Origin: Candidatus Baldrarchaeum yapensis
GTDB taxonomy: Archaea > Asgardarchaeota > Baldrarchaeia > Baldrarchaeales > Baldrarchaeaceae
Length of the DNA: 32,000 bases
Direction of reading: 5' to 3'
Assembly: GCA_016840465.1 (NCBI GenBank)
Contig: JAEOSH010000004.1
Span: forward strand, 1 to 32,000
Below, piece after piece: positions 762-32,000 of the stretch. Numbering within the stretch: the stretch's first letter is position 1; each line of letters begins with the position of its first letter. The notes beneath the pieces were generated by a model. The model was not told the DNA's origin, did not search any database, and was given only the letters and a program-made list of their open reading frames with translations. A program made the translations under genes and the position numbers.

Positions 762-1139
762 TACGCAATTTCCCCATACTCTCAGAATCGATTATTAATT
801 TCTCTTTTCCTTTCCGTTCATTTTTCATCCATATGTAGCAGGGCCGCACTTTGATTTAATATTAGTTTCCCTCAAATATCACCGACGCAACCTCTAGCAT
901 CTGATGCTATGTTCCCTAAGAGGTTAGTATTGACATTTAAATTGCAAAAATGTGGACTTTCTGCGTTGACATGAGCGATAGGTTTCAGAACTGCTGCTAT
1001 AACCTGTAAGTTTCAATCTTTTGGCTCTGAGCACGAGTTCTTGATGTCTGATATGAGGTGGAAGGCTAGGGCTTGGTTTTGGGCATCAATTGTTACTTAT
1101 ATATCTCTCTTTGGTGACAATAGTTTGTGAGGTGTATGA

Positions 1140-2429
1140 ATGTCCGTACGCATGCACATTCCTAGGAGCCTCAAGAGGTTCAAATACCTGTATGATATGC
1201 TCAGCGCTTTCCTAGGAGGGGGATCACTTAAAATAGGGATTAGAAAATTGCGTATTCCCGAGTCCATGCACTTTTTGAAAGAAAGTGGTGATGAAATTAA
1301 CGAATTCATTCGAGAGCGGATATATCCCCTTTATGAGTCTGAAAGCCTCCTCGTCGGAGTCGTTCAGTACACTTATGATGGCGAGAATGCGGAGATGAGA
1401 ATGTGGTATTCTTCTCTCGCAAGCAACGAGCATAAGAGTTCTCTCGCCTCAAAAATCTCTCCTGAAGTGTTTGTGCAGGATCCCGGAGATCTCTCGGTTC
1501 TGGATGTAGAGGGACTCCACGTATGCTACGTATTCTCTGAAATGAAGAGAATCCTTGAGGGAGGTCTGAGACCACGCTTCAAAAGTTTCAGAGACTTCGT
1601 GATCGAGCATCTAGATTACAGAATTTTCTTAAGAGATAGGGATTTATACGACCGGTTGCTTAAGGGTCTGAGTTCGTCAATCACGGATCTGGCGGAGAAA
1701 TTAGGCGCGAGGTTTTCATCGGAGATGCTGAAAGCGGTATACGGGAATAAGATCGTCAGGGAGGTTCTAAGAAGCGCTGTGACCCTCCGAGATGACGAAA
1801 TTCGGAAATTCCTCGAAGACGTGGTGCATGAGATGCTGGTGCGTGCGCTGAGCGGACGCAAAGATGATATTATTTTCACATGTGATGTTCCTCTTTCGGG
1901 AGATGATCGCAAAAGTAGGCGTGAAGTCCGCCCCGTTGCCGCAAGGTACGAATTCTTCTCGTGTAAAGAGACTGAACACTGGGTTGTGGGGACCCTTTGC
2001 AGGGATCCCCGTAATAAATTAAAGGTCTGCTTGAGGATTCCTCTTGTGACGGATGTGAGTATACCAAGTGATCCCCTGATAGTATTATCAGTCTATCCTC
2101 TTGATGTAAGGTCGTCTATGTTTAGAAACTATGAGCATATGCTTATTGTCATAAGACCTATTTTTTCGGGAGAAAGTATTGAGCACGCGCGGTCGCGCTG
2201 TGAGCATGTTGTTGGCAGCGAAATCAACCGGATTAATGATACTCTTAGGAGGAGGTACGATACAACTTTTGCCGAGGCGGTACTCACCCATTACGAAGTA
2301 ATTACAATATCGGGGGTTCCAAGGAGGAGAGCGAGAGAAAAAGTATATAAAACGCCCCTCTCATTAGAAGCAATGAACATTAAGCAGAGATTGAAGGAAA
2401 GGCTGAGAGCTAGAAGATCAATTTTCTGA
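1140..2429 (+). CDS. Hypothetical protein, 429 aa (possible longin/DENN-like N-terminus, unproven)
   Basis: Long open frame; TATA-like TTATATA at about 1098-1104 and GAGGTG SD-like site at 1129-1134; 12 nt before the GTPase-like gene. Confidence 0.75.
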   Translation: MSVRMHIPRSLKRFKYLYDMLSAFLGGGSLKIGIRKLRIPESMHFLKESGDEINEFIRERIYPLYESESLLVGVVQYTYDGENAEMRMWYSSLASNEHKSSLASKISPEVFVQDPGDLSVLDVEGLHVCYVFSEMKRILEGGLRPRFKSFRDFVIEHLDYRIFLRDRDLYDRLLKGLSSSITDLAEKLGARFSSEMLKAVYGNKIVREVLRSAVTLRDDEIRKFLEDVVHEMLVRALSGRKDDIIFTCDVPLSGDDRKSRREVRPVAARYEFFSCKETEHWVVGTLCRDPRNKLKVCLRIPLVTDVSIPSDPLIVLSVYPLDVRSSMFRNYEHMLIVIRPIFSGESIEHARSRCEHVVGSEINRINDTLRRRYDTTFAEAVLTHYEVITISGVPRRRAREKVYKTPLSLEAMNIKQRLKERLRARRSIF

Positions 2430-2441
2430 GCGTGGGAAATT

Positions 2442-3248
2442 ATGCGAACCTCTCTATTCCGTAAGGAAAACGTCGTATTACTGTTGGGGCCCACCTATGC
2501 GGGCAAGACGTCTTTCATCGTAACCTCTTGCTGCTTTTTAAGTTACGCAGAGAAGAAGTTGAACCGGAAGATATTCGTTGAGGGACATCTTCCCGGGGTT
2601 TATAGCACCACTGATCCGCAGGAGGTATGTACAAAGACGATTCTAAGAGCAACAATAATATCAGACGAGGTTAAGTTGCGTGGGGGACGTGGGCTCCTCC
2701 GCATAGTGTCTGTTAGCGGGCACCCTCCCGAGAGCGGCGTGATTCGCGACGATATAGAGCACTTCGTTGCTGGGCTTGCCGACTCTAATCTTAGGTTTAC
2801 GTTCTTCTTCGACCTCGAATACGACCTTGAGAGGCACATCACCATGTTCAACGACTTCTTTTTCCCCATAATAAATAAGGCGATAGGAAGGGATCATGTG
2901 AGAGACATCCTCCTCTACAACAAATTCTTCGTAGTTTTAAATAAGGGGGATAGAATTCTACTTGAGGGCGGTATAAGAGAGTTAGAGGACAGAGTCGAAG
3001 AGTATGAGTCGACATTTCTTGCTCTCCTCATAAAGTCCTACGATCTTCCCGAGGAGGAAGTTCTTAAGAGTTATCGCTCATATGTGACGTTCTGCAACGT
3101 TAGAGAGCATGCTAAACTGCGAGATGAAGTACGCGAACTTCTCAAGAATGCCATTCGTGCATTCTTAGATATGTGCAAACCCGTACTCGGCCCCGATGAG
3201 CATAGATCTCTCGATGGTCTCGTTGGTGAATGGCTAAGGCAGAAGTGA
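2442..3248 (+). CDS. Divergent TRAFAC-class P-loop GTPase-like protein, 268 aa
   Basis: G1 LLLGPTYAGKTS, candidate G2 Thr in YSTT, degenerate G3 (IVSVSGH in place of DxxG), G4 FVVLNKGD. Confidence 0.7.
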   Translation: MRTSLFRKENVVLLLGPTYAGKTSFIVTSCCFLSYAEKKLNRKIFVEGHLPGVYSTTDPQEVCTKTILRATIISDEVKLRGGRGLLRIVSVSGHPPESGVIRDDIEHFVAGLADSNLRFTFFFDLEYDLERHITMFNDFFFPIINKAIGRDHVRDILLYNKFFVVLNKGDRILLEGGIRELEDRVEEYESTFLALLIKSYDLPEEEVLKSYRSYVTFCNVREHAKLRDEVRELLKNAIRAFLDMCKPVLGPDEHRSLDGLVGEWLRQK

Positions 3249-3451
3249 TCACCGGCAGTGTTATCACAATATCGCTTTTTCATACCCGCTTAACTGATGC
3301 CTTACTACCATATACTATCACGCGCCTCATTACATAATCTACGGATCATTTAATATCGATTAACCTCGTATGTTCCTCTTTCAAAGTACTTACTGACAAT
3401 TACACCGCGAAGGGAGAAATTTTCCAGACGAGAGCCCTCATCCTCAGTCAG

Positions 3452-3646
3452 TTGGGCCTAACGGATAAGGCGGCCGAGTTTATTTACAAATGCACGCTAT
3501 GTGGACAGAAACGTATAATATTGCATTCGTTGCCGAGAAACTCTACCCCTGAGTTGGTAAATGACACGATAGAAAAGGGAATCCCCGGGATGTACGCAAA
3601 TCTTCCACCTGAGTTGCTCAAGGGACTCAGAAAAGAAGGTCCCTAA
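3452..3646 (+). CDS. Small hypothetical ORF with one CxxC (KCTLCG); possibly a gene fragment
   Basis: ORF track; the frame stays open upstream to 3338 without a good start codon. Confidence 0.3.
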   Translation: MGLTDKAAEFIYKCTLCGQKRIILHSLPRNSTPELVNDTIEKGIPGMYANLPPELLKGLRKEGP

Positions 3647-3759
3647 GAATTTTGGAATATTAATGGAGTTAAAAAGAGAATGAATCTAAACAATCTATCT
3701 AATCCTCAGTGTTCGGTCTGCTACCATTTCATTTTTCATTTTAGAGGGCGACATGAACT

Positions 3760-4155
3760 ATGCAAGAAAAAAGAGTTGGGCTTTATTTTTGCCTTGTTTT
3801 TGATTTTGTCAAGGGAGTCTAATCCTCCATGACCTTTTCATATTTCCCGCGTATGCAATACCGATGGATTAGATCGGAAAGTTTACCGATAAAGAGGTTC
3901 ATGGGTGCCACTAGCTTCGTGGGCCTTACGGGTAGAGCAATATCGGTCGCAATGACCCTAGGGGCTATTTTCTTCATCGGGAGTTCGAGAACGTACTTTA
4001 CATATCTTACGGCGTCTCTCCTCATGGCTTTCATTTTAGCACTGCTTCCCCTAGGGAGAACATTTTCATGCAGTAGCATAAGAGCTTTCACGGATATTCT
4101 TAGTATGTTGAGCCTCTATAGCAAATTTGTCAACTTAACAGTAATCGACGTTTAA
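3760..4155 (+). pseudogene. Probable remnant of a membrane/MFS-type transporter gene
   Basis: Hydrophobic segments in several frames (LGFIFALFLIL; AISVAMTLGAIFFIG..YLTASLLMAFILALLPLG), no coherent start. Confidence 0.3.
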
Positions 4156-4264
4156 AGAACTTGTGACCTTCTGCACGTGAGCTATTTTAACTTCTAAGAA
4201 AGGGACTTCTCCCGAGAAAAGAGAGCGAACGTGTTCATTGATAATGTTGCGTAGAGGAGGATAA

Positions 4265-4704
4265 TTATTTCAGAAACTCGGAGAGAAATTCGTTCGGCGT
4301 GAGAACGCCGATAATTATTTTCCCCTTGAAGTGTTTTACATTCTACGTTACGAAGCACCAGGGAGACAATTCCTCTAACGTCCATGCTATCATCGCGTCT
4401 CCGTAGTGCATCCCCTTGGCGATGTAGATTATAATTCTCTCAACGTATGACGTCCACTCCGGTGGGAAACTCGGATACAGGATCACGACATCTCGTGCCC
4501 TCAAATAGGTTTCATAGAGAGAGTATGTCTTTTCCTTCGTCCACGCGAGCGATACTATTCCATAAAGTTCTAACAGGTTATGTATCGTTAAGCCGATCCT
4601 GTAGTTCTTCTTCACTTCCTGTAAGAACCTCTCATTCGGTCGTACCGGGTGTCATGAGTATACACGTGATGGATGGCCAGGACATCGGTATCAACTGCCA
4701 CCAC
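4265..4704 (-). pseudogene. vapC: PIN-domain (VapC-like) toxin, inactivated by a frameshift and a nonsense codon
   Basis: GTG start overlapping the antitoxin stop; MVAVDTDVLAIHH, frameshift near 4640, ..IHNLLEL..MHYGDAMIAW..FVT*NVKHFKG..VLTPNEFL; TAG at 4343-4345 where W is expected. Confidence 0.8.
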
Positions 4705-5023
4705 GTCTTCGTACACGGTTCATCAACTCCTCTACAGTCATCTTGCCGAAAACCTTAGCTACAAGTTCCGTGGCCTCCTCTCTAGGTGTCACTGGTATAT
4801 CGTCGAAGGTTTTGTCCTGGGGGATCACACCCCTCTCGTATTGCGCCCACAGTATTGCCTCCTCCCGCAGGGCATTGTACTTCATCAGAATATGCCGTAT
4901 TCCGTCAATGACAGTCTCGCTCCTACTACGATATAGTCCCTTGCGTTTAAGCTCGTCCATCAATGCGACCATCTTACGGGGGATCCGAACTTGGATTAGT
5001 ACGCTTTCTTCTCCCTCTCCCAT
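4691..5023 (-). CDS. Ribbon-helix-helix (CopG/Arc/MetJ) antitoxin-like regulator
   Basis: LIQVRIPRKMVALMDELKRKGLYRSRSETVIDGIR is an RHH signature; stop overlaps the PIN gene start. Confidence 0.8.
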   Translation of the reverse strand: MGEGEESVLIQVRIPRKMVALMDELKRKGLYRSRSETVIDGIRHILMKYNALREEAILWAQYERGVIPQDKTFDDIPVTPREEATELVAKVFGKMTVEELMNRVRRRGGS

Positions 5024-5834: not shown

Positions 5835-5988
5835 TACGATTCACGTGAAACTTTTATGCATTCTTCATAACTTCTCGAATCTCGAACGGATTCAATTTGA
5901 ATGATCCTCTACATTTCGCAAAAGATCTTTTAAACGGAACGGATCATAAAGTATACAAGTTTATAAGTTGATTTGTCTACATATCTAC

Positions 5989-6258
5989 ATGGTGATGCCG
6001 GTGAGTACCACTATCAGGATCTCGTTAGAGGACAAGGAGCGTCTTGCAGTGTTTGCAAAGAAGGTGAATGCTAAAAGTCTAGCGGAGGCCCTTAGAATAG
6101 CTATTTCGATGGCAGAAGAGAAACTTGATGAGTTTAAAGGCAACATCGAGGCTTTAAAAGAACTTTTAAAGAGTGCAGGTCGCGTCGGTGGTAGAATATC
6201 AGAGAGGGTTGATGAAGAACTCGCGAATATAATATACGAGGAGAGCAAGGAAGAATGA
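5989..6258 (+). CDS. vapB: VapB-like antitoxin
   Basis: STTIRISLEDKERL N-terminal DNA-binding motif; ATGA overlap with the PIN gene; start probably ATG 5989 or 5995 rather than 5968. Confidence 0.75.
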   Translation: MVMPVSTTIRISLEDKERLAVFAKKVNAKSLAEALRIAISMAEEKLDEFKGNIEALKELLKSAGRVGGRISERVDEELANIIYEESKEE

Positions 6259-6743
6259 GCATATTTGTGGATACGGGCGTTTTTTATGCGATGCTTGATC
6301 GGAATGATGCTAATCACATGGACGCCGTAGCCATAATGATACATGCGCTTGAGGGGAAGTTCGGTCAGGTAATCACAACCGACTATGTAGTTCTAGAAAC
6401 AACATTACTCCTCAAGGCGAGGATCGGTTCTAAGACCGTTGAGGATTTCTTGAGATTTCTCGAACGGAGCGGAATAGCCACGGTTGTGGTTGATGAGGAA
6501 ACGTACCGGAGAACTGTAGAATTGATGAAAAAACATCCCGAGAAATTGAGTTTATGCGATGCCGCTACCTTGGTTATTATGAAAGACTGGAAAGTAAAGA
6601 ATCTGGCCACATTCGATCTGAGAAGCTTTGGTAATCTGGCGGTGGCCATTGTAGGAAAGGGATACTTCAACTCATTGTCTGAGAAAGAAAAAAGAAGAAT
6701 TTCTTCTCTGATCGAGAGGTGGAGCGTTCAAAAGGATATATAA
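6255..6743 (+). CDS. vapC: PIN-domain ribonuclease toxin (VapC), apparently intact
   Basis: IFVDTGVFYA, TTDYVVLET, LSLCDAAT, LATFD acidic catalytic set. Confidence 0.9.
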   Translation: MSIFVDTGVFYAMLDRNDANHMDAVAIMIHALEGKFGQVITTDYVVLETTLLLKARIGSKTVEDFLRFLERSGIATVVVDEETYRRTVELMKKHPEKLSLCDAATLVIMKDWKVKNLATFDLRSFGNLAVAIVGKGYFNSLSEKEKRRISSLIERWSVQKDI

Positions 6744-6797: not shown

Positions 6798-7373
6798 TTA
6801 TAGATTCTTGAGAAGGCAGAATATGTGCGTGCATGTTTTATACAATTCCTCCGTGCTCGCCCCCTTGACCAAATGTAATAGGATATCCTTTGATATAATT
6901 TCTTGCGCGGATTCGACACTCCTTATACGGCCCTCGATGTTAGGATTCCTACGAAGCAGGAGTAAGACCCTGTGATCCTCTATTGAGTGTCTTTTGAAAT
7001 TAGAGAACTCATGCACGCCGCTCACGGACATGTAAATCTTAAGATTTTGGTTCTCAAGGTGGAGTATGAATGTCTGATGGCATATCTGTTCGAAATTACG
7101 TACTTTTAATCCTTTAGCATTTAAACTGTCAACAAAACTCATAATTCGTTTCTCTACAGTGAAATTCTCGGAATCGAGAATCACACCTATGGCTTTTACC
7201 CTCTTAAACAACCTTGTGAGCAGAATCATTACGGATGAGATCGAATTAGAGAATCTATTCCCTCGCAATCGGCAACTCCGATTATTTTTCTCTGCTGCTG
7301 GCTTTAGTTTCTCGATTATTATTTTTACGATTTCACTTTCCGTGCTTCCCTCGCATAGTACTAGAGCATCCAC
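6798..7373 (-). CDS. DUF3226-like / TOPRIM-fold protein, partner of the AAA ATPase
   Basis: LVLCEGSTE (EGxxD/E), IGVILDSE (DxD-like), HSIED; directly downstream of the ATPase. Confidence 0.55.
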   Translation of the reverse strand: MDALVLCEGSTESEIVKIIIEKLKPAAEKNNRSCRLRGNRFSNSISSVMILLTRLFKRVKAIGVILDSENFTVEKRIMSFVDSLNAKGLKVRNFEQICHQTFILHLENQNLKIYMSVSGVHEFSNFKRHSIEDHRVLLLLRRNPNIEGRIRSVESAQEIISKDILLHLVKGASTEELYKTCTHIFCLLKNL

Positions 7374-7438
7374 TCTAGGGAGTTTGCGGAGGATTATTTC
7401 GATGAAGTTGTTTCGCGGGTTTTAGTTGTATTAACATT

Positions 7439-8505
7439 TTAGAACACGTAAAGCAATCTTATATCGATGCCCAATTTTCTGAGAAGTTCCGCGTCGTCTA
7501 GAGAGAAGTTTTGTGAGGTCACGGTGCCGTCCGAGTCTCTCTCCAGATATATGACCGATGATTCTATTCCGAGGTTTTCAGCTAATTCCTTAGCTATGGA
7601 TACAAATTCGACGCTGTGCGTTGACACTAGGAGTTGAAAGTTCTTATCCTTAGCCAATTTGAAGATGAAGTCTGTGAGGCTTCTAAGGCCAACCGGATGC
7701 ATGTGGTTTTCCGGTTCCTCGATAAGAACTAACGTTGGATTAGATGCCAGGAGCAGGAGGGATACAAGGATTGCTATTCTTGCACCATCTCCGAGATCAT
7801 CTATTCTGACCGTGGTTTTAGATGTTTGAAGAACAAGAATGTAGGTATCACCAATGGGGACGAATGTAAGTCCCTCGGCGTCGGTTTTAAACTCGTCCCT
7901 TACCATAGAAACTATTTCTTTATCTAATCTCTTAGAAACAACCTTAGCCCACGCATATCTTTCGATGAGGGAAGGCTTTGAGAGGAGTTTGTGATCTATA
8001 AACAGCACCCCCTCCAGCAATTTCTTCACGTCACTGTATTGTTTAAGCAGGTCCTCGCGACGCGTGTACGAGGCTTCAGTTTTACTCATGAGGTATCCAT
8101 CCGCCAGTTTGACGAGCCCCTCATCCGTTAGGAGGCGCACAGGGAAATCGGGACGATGTGAGCCCAAGGATATGCTTTTATCGAGTACATGAAATTCTAG
8201 ATATTGGCCGTCCACGCGGAGTTTTACTATTATGTTCTTGGAGGTACCTATCTGGTGCCATAGCACGTCTTTAGACGTGTTCCAACTGCCTCTTCCTCCC
8301 CTCCGGGAAATGAGATAGTCCAATTTCATTTCGTCTCTGATGATGTCCTTATGTGAAGCACAGGAGGATATTAGATAAAGGGTCTCTAGGAGGCTGGATT
8401 TACCGGCGCCATTTCTGCCAATGAGTATTGTTAACTGTTTTAAACCATCTATCGACGCCCTGCTGATCCCCTAAAGTTCTCCACATCGATACGTTCGATA
8501 AGCAC
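7439..8505 (-). pseudogene. ABC/SMC-like AAA ATPase (AAA_15/AAA_21 type) with a single-base frameshift in the 5' region
   Basis: AGGAGG SD, then GTG 8505 MLIERIDVENFRG; one G short in the run at 8468-8471; the shifted frame gives ISRASIDGLKQLTILIGRNGAGKSSLLE (Walker A), continuous with ORF 7439-8329 carrying DLGDG signature, LIEEPENHMHP Walker B/D-loop and STHS. Confidence 0.85.
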
Positions 8506-8807: not shown

Positions 8808-10103
8808 TTATTTCTTCACGGCACTATCTCTGAACACCTGTACCACGTCGAGTATCTTTATGTCAAAGTTTCCTGCCTCTGCAGCATCTCTAAGATTCCT
8901 CTCGCAGAAGGGACATGCGGTCAACAGCACAGATGCCCCGGTCTCTTTCGCCTCTTTCAATCTCTCAGTAGCGGCGAATAGCGCCAGATCCTTAAATGCC
9001 GACTTGACTCCCGCGCCCGCTCCGCAACACCATGCATTTCTCCTATTTCTGACCATTTCGGATAATTCAAGCCCAGGTATCTTCTTAATTACCTCTCTCG
9101 GGGGCTCATACAGTCCCATGTGCCTCCCTATATGGCACGGGTCGTGGTACGTGACCTTCCACCCTATTTCTCTTTCCGGTTGCAAACCCCCGTCCTTCAT
9201 TAACCTAAGTAGGAACTCCGGTGCATGTAGGATCTCAGCATCGATTTCCAACCCGAGCCTCTCCGGATACACCTGCTTCAACATCCGGTAGCATCCCGCG
9301 CATGAGGTGACGATCACACTCGCTCCCGTCTTCTTGAACTCCTCAACATTGTGTCGCGCGCACTCTTCTGCAATATCCACCTGTCCTGTCCAGAACAGCG
9401 GTGATCCGCAACACCATTCATCCTTCAAAAGGGTGAACTTCAGCCCAGATGCCGAGAGTATCTCAAGCATCGCCTTTGCGACTTCCATTTCCCTGTAAGA
9501 GCATGTGCATCCCACGAAGTAAACTACGTCTGCCTTTTCGGGAAGTTCCTTTACTTTTGTTGCGTTCATCCAGTTGCGCCTGTTTGCATGTAGCTCCATG
9601 TAGGGGTTATGTTCCTTTCTGACCCAGTCCCCGAATCTCTTGTGCTCCGGCATTGGACCGATGCCGCGCTTTACAAATTCAACACGAGCGGCAAATAGCC
9701 ACTCCAATGCGTAGTTATGAATTTCAGGAAGCTGACATTGTTGCGTACAGTTTCCACAGAGGGTGCAGTGGTAGAATATCCTTGCTATTCTTTCGGACCA
9801 CTCGAGTTTGCCCGATAGCAGTCCCCATAGCAGGAGGTTCTTTCCACCTAGGTAGAATGCCTCGAACTTCCTCAGTTCTCCACTTGGGCAAACTCTGCTC
9901 CAGTACGCATCTTGGTAAACGTACCTGCATTGTCCGCATTTTCCGCAGAAGTACACCACCCTCTTATAGTACTCAAGTTCTCGGTTTCTCTCCAGTTCGA
10001 GCTGTTCCGGTGCCTTTCTAAAGGTTATTCCGGTGCCCGGGATGTAATTCTCTAGGGACTTCTTGAAGAGGGAGAGCAGGAGTTCACGGGTTTTAGAGGA
10101 CAA
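8808..10103 (-). CDS. (Fe-S)-binding oxidoreductase subunit, HdrD/GlpC/GlcF-like (4Fe-4S dicluster + two CCG domains)
   Basis: CGKCGQC..CP, CTLCGNCTQQC, YFVGC, WCCG, TSCAGC, TYHDPCHIGR, WCCGAGAG, TACPFC. Confidence 0.93.
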   Translation of the reverse strand: MSSKTRELLLSLFKKSLENYIPGTGITFRKAPEQLELERNRELEYYKRVVYFCGKCGQCRYVYQDAYWSRVCPSGELRKFEAFYLGGKNLLLWGLLSGKLEWSERIARIFYHCTLCGNCTQQCQLPEIHNYALEWLFAARVEFVKRGIGPMPEHKRFGDWVRKEHNPYMELHANRRNWMNATKVKELPEKADVVYFVGCTCSYREMEVAKAMLEILSASGLKFTLLKDEWCCGSPLFWTGQVDIAEECARHNVEEFKKTGASVIVTSCAGCYRMLKQVYPERLGLEIDAEILHAPEFLLRLMKDGGLQPEREIGWKVTYHDPCHIGRHMGLYEPPREVIKKIPGLELSEMVRNRRNAWCCGAGAGVKSAFKDLALFAATERLKEAKETGASVLLTACPFCERNLRDAAEAGNFDIKILDVVQVFRDSAVKK

Positions 10104-31596: not shown

Positions 31597-32000
31597 ATGA
31601 GTAAAAAGCCGATGATGGGATCTTACTATCTCCTGAAGGTCGTACTGATAGGAGACGGCGGGGTCGGGAAAACGTCTCTGTGTCGGAGGTTCGTTGAAAA
31701 GAAATTCGAGCACAAATACCTCCCGACAATAGGCGCCGATTTCTATGTTAAGAATGTCTTCCTCGACGACGTAACCCCGGTGAAATTCCAAATATGGGAC
31801 CTTGCTGGGCAACCTAGGTTTCATTCCGTGGTTGACATGTACTTCAGAGGAGCGCGGGGGGCGTTGGCAGTATACTCCGTCGTTGACAGGGAAAGCTACA
31901 ACAATCTCATCAACTGGGTGAAAAGGCTGATAGAGAAGTCGGGAGTGCGGCCTCCACCTGCAATAATGATACTGGGGAATAAGATAGATCTCCGCGCTGG
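31597..32000 (+). CDS. Rab-like small GTPase (3'-truncated by the window edge)
   Basis: Hand translation: MSKKPMMGSYYLLKVVLIGDGGVGKTSL..YLPTIGADF..KFQIWDLAGQPRFHSVVDMYFRGA..LGNKIDLR; not in the ORF track. Confidence 0.93.
   Translation, partial: MSKKPMMGSYYLLKVVLIGDGGVGKTSLCRRFVEKKFEHKYLPTIGADFYVKNVFLDDVTPVKFQIWDLAGQPRFHSVVDMYFRGARGALAVYSVVDRESYNNLINWVKRLIEKSGVRPPPAIMILGNKIDLRA

Follow-up and report, generated by a model that had tools for sequence, protein, structure and literature searches.

A rare Asgard archaeal gene pair encoding an enlarged GTPase without the Walker B aspartate looks like a shortened form of a three-gene membrane-linked cassette

Small GTPases are numerous in Asgard genomes, and for most of them the native regulator is not known. 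Two adjacent genes of Candidatus Baldrarchaeum yapensis raise this question in a sharp form, as one of them encodes a GTPase-like protein with neither the Walker B Asp nor the catalytic Gln: how might such a switch work, and with what partner? The genes lie in the first 32,000 nucleotides (nt) of the forward strand of contig JAEOSH010000004.1 (assembly GCA_016840465.1), a stretch referred to here as the window. Gene A (1140-2429, + strand) is an open reading frame (ORF) of 429 amino acids (aa), and gene G (2442-3248, + strand), an ORF of 268 aa with an enlarged TRAFAC-class G-domain, follows after a 12 nt gap (2430-2441). A sequence-only reading had presented the pair as an orphan module, but both genes proved to have linked relatives elsewhere. 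Our analysis indicates that G belongs to a real family that is under selection, apparently undescribed and equipped with dedicated partner genes, and the window pair looks like a shortened form of a rare three-gene, membrane-linked cassette.

The AlphaFold2 model of G (predicted local distance difference test score, pLDDT, 78.8; predicted template modeling score, pTM, 0.82) matched GTPases among solved structures when compared with Foldseek and VIA (Z 14.5-13.0 over 174-181 residues, root-mean-square deviation (rmsd) 2.9-3.6). The top match was 9edr_G, from a tubulin cofactor complex (Z 14.5, rmsd 2.9, 178 residues), with LokiRagO (Z 14.2), RagD (13.1) and MglA (13.0) behind it; Arl2, Rag, MglA and EF-Tu are all among the leading matches. 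Since these rows are nearly tied, they fix the class of G and not its family. Strands 75-81 and 84-90 of the model form a consecutive pair with the antiparallel strand of TRAFAC GTPases, and the TRAFAC signatures G1 GxxxxGK[ST], G2 Thr and G4 [NT]KxD were found in all nine members of the family described below. The model therefore places G in the TRAFAC small-GTPase fold, and the lack of a G-domain fold, which the sequence-only reading had named as a way in which it might fail, did not come about. A long first helix, an insert in switch I, lengthened helices 3 and 4 and a helix at the C-terminus account for the additional 80-100 residues of G. DO-GTPase1/2 clusters gave the highest-scoring and longest shape matches in two ESM Atlas searches (TM by query 0.61-0.64, 214-235 residues), closely followed by Rag (0.59-0.61) and an Asgard G-domain cluster (0.60). 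Neither A nor G had a match above cut-off in Pfam, NCBIfam, PADLOC or PHROGs, and phmmer of G against the PDB was empty. Viral structure matches to G were generic GTPases, and no relative of G was encoded on viral contigs in a single-sequence query that detects close relatives only.

Conservation was assessed across the family, comprising nine distinct sequences mostly from hydrothermal Asgard archaea. All of the motifs quoted in the sequence-only reading are present in G. The G1 P-loop GPTYAGKTS (2487-2513, + strand) spans residues 16-24, of which G16, P17, G21, K22, T23 and S24 are invariant, and the guanine-specificity motif G4, NKGD (2940-2951, + strand), spans residues 167-170 with N167, K168 and D170 invariant. 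The segment IVSVSGH corresponds to residues 88-94, and alignment to SRbeta, Rab and Arf puts Ser90 at the Asp position of DxxG and His94 at the Gln position; within this Asp-less G3 region (S90-V-S-G93-H94; 2709-2723, + strand) S92 and G93 are invariant. Also invariant are G2 Thr71 and Asp75 (T-x-x-x-D; 2652-2666, + strand), which align with the Thr54/Asp58-type TLFFD of MglA and the TIGVD of Rab, as well as L33, E37, G84, F121, D124 and T216. Cys31 in long helix 1 and Cys63 in the switch-I insert (2532-2630, + strand) are present in all nine sequences; they are specific to the family and, judged from sequence, could possibly form a disulfide or metal staple. As the G-domain fold was recovered and the motifs are kept in nine relatives down to approximately 30% local identity, the motifs are not due to chance.

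The Asp position of DxxG is occupied by Ser, Ala or Thr in 9/9 members, showing that loss of this Asp is a trait of the family. Across the nine sequences the residues at the Gln position are H, N, Y, L, N, L, Y, D and F, and none has Gln there. The His that had been noted at the Gln position is thus present in the window copy but is not kept in the family, and because the position is not conserved, His94 was ruled out as a catalytic residue. Nor is an Asp-less G3 as exceptional as had been supposed: it is known from MglA, where it reads TVPGQ in Group 1 and GTPGQ in Groups 2-5 (PMC4316618), and the same genome encodes four more cases, namely three MglA-type proteins (TATGQ, TVAGQ and GAPGQ) and one Arf-like protein (TVGGQ).

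Members of the family are very rare: searching 1.84 billion representatives with a profile gave six matches, and clear matches were found in 5 of 400 Asgard genomes, these being the host genome and four of the seven genomes in the Njordarchaeum family; four other genomes of the host's own order (82-91% complete) gave no match. The host genome shares its phylum with Ca. Njordarchaeum guaymaensis, in agreement with the Asgard host presumed in the sequence-only reading. A GTDB-wide scan holds for the matches listed, and the family may also occur beyond the Asgard archaea. We found no description of it in the literature within our coverage, which excludes most subscription journals.

Gene A had homologs directly upstream of G in two further lineages, so that with the window this adjacency is seen in three, and linkage in other genomes, on which the sequence-only reading depended, was borne out. 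In the Guaymas-type contigs L016-L018 the A homolog lies 68 nt upstream of a G that is 37% identical to the window copy; the full-length homolog in L016 has 427 aa, with 24% identity and E 1.7e-32. The short contig L004 carries the last 80 aa of A (approximately 53% identity) 13 nt upstream of a 60%-identical G. Synonymous sites are saturated and dN is 0.30-0.37, consistent with purifying selection, and the partner genes diverge faster than G. The most conserved part of A (1980-2327, + strand) aligns around WxxGTLC (residues 281-287), R[IL]P[LI]VxDxSIP (299-309) and ISG[VI]PR (390-395). A is predicted to have a beta-containing N-terminal part (approximately 1-140), a helical middle (150-240) and a beta-meander with long helices (265-429), and no membrane helix.

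Structure prediction was less informative for A than for its neighbor. The AlphaFold2 model, from a 6-row alignment, had pLDDT 38 and the Atlas model 0.33; the alignment mixed two groups later seen not to be detectably homologous, which may have hurt the model. A fold search with this low-confidence model listed helical hairpins only (Z up to 6.4), and the fact that DENN, longin and GAP1 entries were not listed excludes nothing. At this pLDDT, A did not model as an unrelated known enzyme, another outcome that the sequence-only reading had seen as fatal to it. Co-folding of A with G, which that reading had proposed as a check, scored 0.37, the best of three controls scoring 0.00, and the runs shared at least 35% of contacts, with partner pLDDT 32-37. 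The mark applied is attained by 58 of 80 solved complexes and by 2 of 110 mismatched pairs, but just 7 of those 80 complexes attain it with scores of 0.60 or lower, as do both mismatched pairs; the result separates the pair from its controls, yet it is weak support, in a score range shared with both mismatches that pass. Taking conserved adjacency as the prior and adding this modeled contact, we consider that A probably, on balance, binds G.

In five of nine lineages G is followed, with overlap or within a few bases, by a third gene, C (273-292 aa). The sequence-only reading had missed it in describing a two-gene unit, as most relatives carry three genes. C consists of an alpha/beta N-terminal domain without a P-loop, then one or two predicted membrane helices, and across clades these proteins resemble one another weakly, two of three N-terminal pairs having z 4.1-5.9. 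Since C is present on both sides of the deepest split in the G tree, the three-gene form is probably ancestral; the root of this tree is not secure, and the Njordarchaeia copies are kin and do not count as independent cases. By eye, the strand-helix order of C resembles a degenerate G-domain; a paralogous relationship to G found no sequence support. Four Njordarchaeia-type cassettes start with a soluble gene of 344-389 aa, which occupies the place that A has in the window, matches it in size class and likewise carries a G-x-P motif ahead of its final helix. This likeness is only suggestive, and homology of the two was not detected in hhalign, hidden Markov model (HMM) or profile-shuffle comparisons.

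C was not found in the host genome (2.27 Mb, 96% complete) by profile search, either downstream of G or elsewhere. A hydrophobic 108-aa ORF at 3829-4155 was considered as a remnant of C and discarded, as it did not match the C profile. In L004 an opposite-strand gene lies directly behind G, with no C there, and in two Njordarchaeia genomes neither partner was detected with G. One partner-less copy, on L021 (8001-8799), is split into pieces of 113 and 162 aa and may be decaying or mis-assembled; its near-identical counterpart in G315 is whole. The L044 and L041 cassettes sit among housekeeping genes (helicases, transporters, creatininase and surface proteins), and L016 lies near a V4R/TRAPP-like gene.

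These observations lead us to favor, with confidence that we would put at about even, a partner-dependent GTP switch that was ancestrally membrane-tethered and has A as its dedicated soluble partner. G would bind Mg-GTP through G1, Thr71 and NKxD, in keeping with its modeled fold and conserved motifs. By analogy with MglA, the invariant Asp75 on strand 2 may stand in for the lost Walker B Asp: MglA is active with Thr at this position, its Asp58 on the neighboring strand serving instead (PMC11016934; bioRxiv 2022.06.23.497301). Because it has no Gln and no conserved arginine finger, G alone would be expected to hydrolyze GTP slowly and to depend on a partner for turning off or reloading. The most likely candidate for this role is A, which could be its GTPase-activating protein (GAP), its exchange factor for guanine nucleotides (GEF) or an effector of the GTP state. 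In the ancestral gene order, soluble partner-G-C, C would dock the switch at the membrane; in the host lineage and in the 60%-identical relative there is no C beside G, and A-G would be kept as a soluble pair. The likeliest role, by analogy with other Asgard GTPase-regulator operons, is a lineage-specific signaling or membrane-remodeling switch; several cassette copies lie among housekeeping genes, and no nuclease or toxin gene is found inside the cassettes.

Several points weigh against this interpretation. Asp75 falls on the T-x-x-x-D of MglA in a joint alignment, but Rab and Arf in the same alignment often have Asp at Thr+4 too, so Asp75 alone is no proof of compensation. The model of A is not usable, and no homology to A was detected for the gene upstream of G in the Njordarchaeia-type copies. 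In G315, G is found with neither A nor C, and in G312 it lies behind a 323-aa gene that is unrelated. Binding and hydrolysis of GTP by G are themselves predictions from fold and motifs. The patchy distribution of the family and the toxin-antitoxin-rich neighborhood in the window would fit defense as well.

A defensive function, one of the two roles that the sequence-only reading had put forward beside signaling in Asgard archaea, would make the cassette an anti-virus conflict module resembling DO-GTPase systems, with A as a GAP1-like sensor or scaffold, G as the switch and C as a degenerate second GTPase whose membrane helices serve as anchor or effector. We consider this unlikely, though it accounts for a good deal: DO-GTPase1/2 clusters are the best and longest Atlas shape matches of G, the known systems likewise have a partner, often two GTPase copies and membrane components (PMC7159879), the family occupies a different locus in each lineage, its partners diverge faster than G, and the window copy is close to two VapBC-type pairs and an AAA_21/DUF3226 pair, as the L042 copy is to a HEPN gene. 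Against it, G has no conserved Walker B Glu, neither GAP1 nor DO-GTPase Pfam models match above cut-off, PF19993 was not found in 251 Asgard genomes searched, the cassettes contain no variable effector gene, Rag and the Asgard G-domain cluster score nearly as well in the Atlas, and the L044 and L041 copies have housekeeping neighbors. The sequence-only reading had also suggested, from a loose likeness, that A is a DENN/longin (profilin-like) GEF or GAP acting on G, as in the Asgard roadblock/longin/DENN-GTPase operons. Such operons are known (bioRxiv 2020.10.19.343400), Rag and MglA, which use roadblock/longin partners, are among the top structure matches of G, and the segment on which the claim was built is indeed present at A residues 70-92 and 118-132 and is conserved in the L016 homolog. 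The predicted strand-rich N- and C-terminal parts of A, each followed by helices, are loosely profilin-like when read as a pattern. The resemblance consists of this strand pattern; no result firmly opposes the identification, which we regard as rather doubtful.

G might also be a pseudo-GTPase scaffold like Ski7, binding GTP or GDP without hydrolysis, with A and C as constitutive partners and the cysteine pair as a structural or redox input. The non-conservation of G3 Asp, Gln/His and arginine finger, the two invariant cysteines and the presence of Ski7 among the fold matches (Z 12.5) all agree with this. G2 Thr and G3 Gly are the gamma-phosphate sensors of a working GTPase switch, and the invariance of Thr71 and Gly93 therefore counts against a pseudo-GTPase; moreover, absence of the Asp leaves MglA active, and Group 1 Rup lacks Gln, which has been proposed to be supplied by a GAP (PMC4316618). 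We judge this explanation very unlikely. Least credible is that the window pair is a remnant, non-functional after the loss of C and decaying with its neighbors. C was not found in a nearly complete genome and the flanking genes are frameshifted, but both ORFs are full length, as they are in contigs from other studies, and in the sister lineage L004 the A-G order is unchanged, a gene on the opposite strand comes directly after G, and all motifs are retained at 60% identity. On this sequence comparison, conservation in L004 appears largely to refute decay. At the other extreme, and quite unlikely in our estimation, the cassette could represent a new G-protein class, in which G, an active GTPase with a catalytic chemistry peculiar to it (no Asp, no Gln, Cys-stapled switch I), and C, a membrane-anchored dead G-domain, form a heterodimer of the Rag or SR kind under the control of A, a regulator whose fold would be new among GAPs and GEFs, making up an Asgard-born membrane signaling or immunity machine.

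The layout of the window locus agrees with that described in the sequence-only reading. A TATA-like box, TTATATAT (1097-1104, + strand), is a putative archaeal operon promoter, a sigma-70 promoter scan not being applicable to archaea, and a Shine-Dalgarno-like GAGGTG (1129-1134, + strand) precedes the ATG of gene A by 5 nt; with the 12 nt gap, all parts of the proposed operon were located. The pair had further been called intact amid decayed neighbors, which also stood. The C-terminal half of an acyl-CoA synthetase (221-723, + strand) is split over three frames with stops, intact paralogs being present on C12 and C41, and a PIN gene at 4268-4704 is frameshifted, whereas A and G are full length. 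Contigs from runs X4 and X5, of two other studies, span 900-4400 with 6-7 substitutions and zero indels relative to the window; they are near-identical to it and may be from the same strain. A contig of run X6 skips 41 bases at 3791-3833, a strain-level deletion just downstream of the A-G module. The clear holders of window DNA are all sediment, vent or seawater metagenomes, with no RNA dataset among those listed. GC content is 0.46-0.47 for A-G and 0.46 for the genome, and codon usage falls at the 13th and 24th percentiles; recent foreign origin was considered, and neither measure gives any sign of it.

Other features of the window were noted in passing. An open stretch without a start codon at approximately 3340-3650 (+ strand), with the CxxC motif YKCTLCG, resembles the Fe-S/CCG oxidoreductase at 8808-10103 and is probably a gene fragment. 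VapBC-type pairs occur at 4268-5023 (- strand; a ribbon-helix-helix gene with the frameshifted PIN gene) and at 5968-6743 (+ strand; an apparently intact small gene and PIN). At 6798-8329 (- strand) a DUF3226/TOPRIM-like gene lies behind an AAA_21 ATPase with AbiLi/AriA/Old-like matches; the AAA_21 ORF of 296 aa matches only the C-terminal part of its family, shows no Walker A and may be truncated. A canonical Rab-like GTPase (WDLAGQ) at 31597-32000 (+ strand) is cut by the window end.

Two weak matches, G319 (L014) and G177 (L035), were kept out of the family as other Asp-less G-domains on long branches. The G319 GTPase (308 aa; G3 LATGGG) is part of a tight operon (L014, 4182-10000, - strand) with a membrane protein, a 479-aa ParA/MinD-like protein and a 636-aa unknown protein. 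G177 (L035, 1492-2187, + strand) is a 231-aa GTPase with G3 FAPGG and Asn at Thr+4; it represents one more Asgard family lacking the G3 Asp, and it lacks the substitute Asp of the MglA type as well. The L016/L017 contig is filed by NCBI as 'Thermofilum sp. ex4484_82' and is possibly a misbinned Asgard contig; along with its V4R/TRAPP-like gene it carries a winged-helix protein whose N-terminus looks roadblock-like by eye. On L029 (490-1560, + strand) an AT-rich ORF of unrelated sequence is fused to the final 40 residues of a Njordarchaeia-type upstream gene, probably by chimeric assembly.

In three-gene and two-gene forms, the cassette brings together a GTPase, a soluble partner and a membrane anchor as a matched set found in hydrothermal organisms. 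If our interpretation is correct, Walker B rewiring of the MglA type would occur in a second, distant family, which bears on how a switch is turned off when it lacks both Asp and Gln. Its reach is limited by the great rarity of the family, which our searches did not find in the cultured Asgard lineages covered and which has no demonstrated connection with eukaryotes. Of greater interest are the way in which A and C fold, the two invariant cysteines and the combined absence of Asp and Gln.

Among known systems, the MglA-MglB pair of Myxococcus xanthus and Thermus thermophilus (PDB 5ymx) shares with A-G a G1 starting GP, the absence of the G3 Asp, Asp at G2 Thr+4, NKxD, an adjacent partner gene and a fold match (Z 13.0, rmsd 3.4, 174 residues). 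In contrast to MglA, G has no PGQ and no Gln, the invariant Ser-Gly being followed by H/N/Y/L/D/F. Next to the G2 Thr, where MglA has an Arg finger (Group 1) or Thr (Groups 2-5), G has Ala70, and the family has Arg in 3/9 members and Thr in 0/9. The G family is also longer (250-285 aa versus 160-180 aa for MglA) and its partner has 430 aa where MglA has a small roadblock protein; no small roadblock gene lies beside G at any locus examined. In the best trees G is on a very long branch and is not nested in the MglA clade, and a joint clade has p-AU 0.44; the tree includes 3 MglA rows and leaves out EF1a, GPN and two long-branch Asp-less rows. Filing G as an MglA was rejected on its lack of PGQ and of a conserved arginine finger, its much greater length and its very long branch, a joint clade being neither shown nor rejected.

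DO-GTPases are defined by a Walker B Glu, a GAP1 partner and variable effectors, and their systems have a dedicated partner, a second GTPase copy in 38% and a membrane component in 67% (PMC7159879); YcjX is a relative (PMC11237479). The DO-GTPase/GAP1 systems of Kaur et al. 2020 (PMC7159879; PF19975, PF19993) resemble the cassette in their enlarged TRAFAC G-domain with helical inserts, partner gene and membrane component. G differs in lacking a Walker B Asp or Glu and any invariant acidic residue in the G3 region, and one of nine members matches PF19975/PF19993 at E 0.033, far below cut-off. No upstream gene gave a Pfam match at E up to 1 and GAP1 domains were not detected, a zinc ribbon is lacking, and no variable effector gene or fusion was found in L016, L041, L042, L044 or the window. 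As a counterpart of the second copy or membrane part, C has predicted membrane helices and a beta-alpha pattern, with no sequence link to G. SRbeta, paired with the SRX longin domain of SRalpha (PDB 1nrj), resembles G in its G1 (GPQNSGKTS) and in the His after the G3 Gly, and is a weak sequence match (E 0.006), with Pfam SRPRB matched by 4/9 members (best E 0.0095); SRbeta retains the Asp of G3 and carries a membrane anchor at its N-terminus, and the corresponding His is not conserved in the G family.

The Asgard roadblock-GTPase-DENN and Rag-like operons (bioRxiv 2020.10.19.343400) share an Asgard host and the coupling of a GTPase to a putative regulator, and LokiRagO (PDB 8yl2) matches G over 181 residues at rmsd 3.1. 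They differ in that G has neither a roadblock gene nor a fused roadblock/longin domain beside it, and in being kept in most Asgard archaea, whereas the A-G-C cassette is rare and patchy. By analogy with these systems, the cassette may best be seen as a variant on the Asgard GTPase-regulator operons with an MglA-like rewiring of the active site, and its loss of the Asp as less surprising than was first thought.

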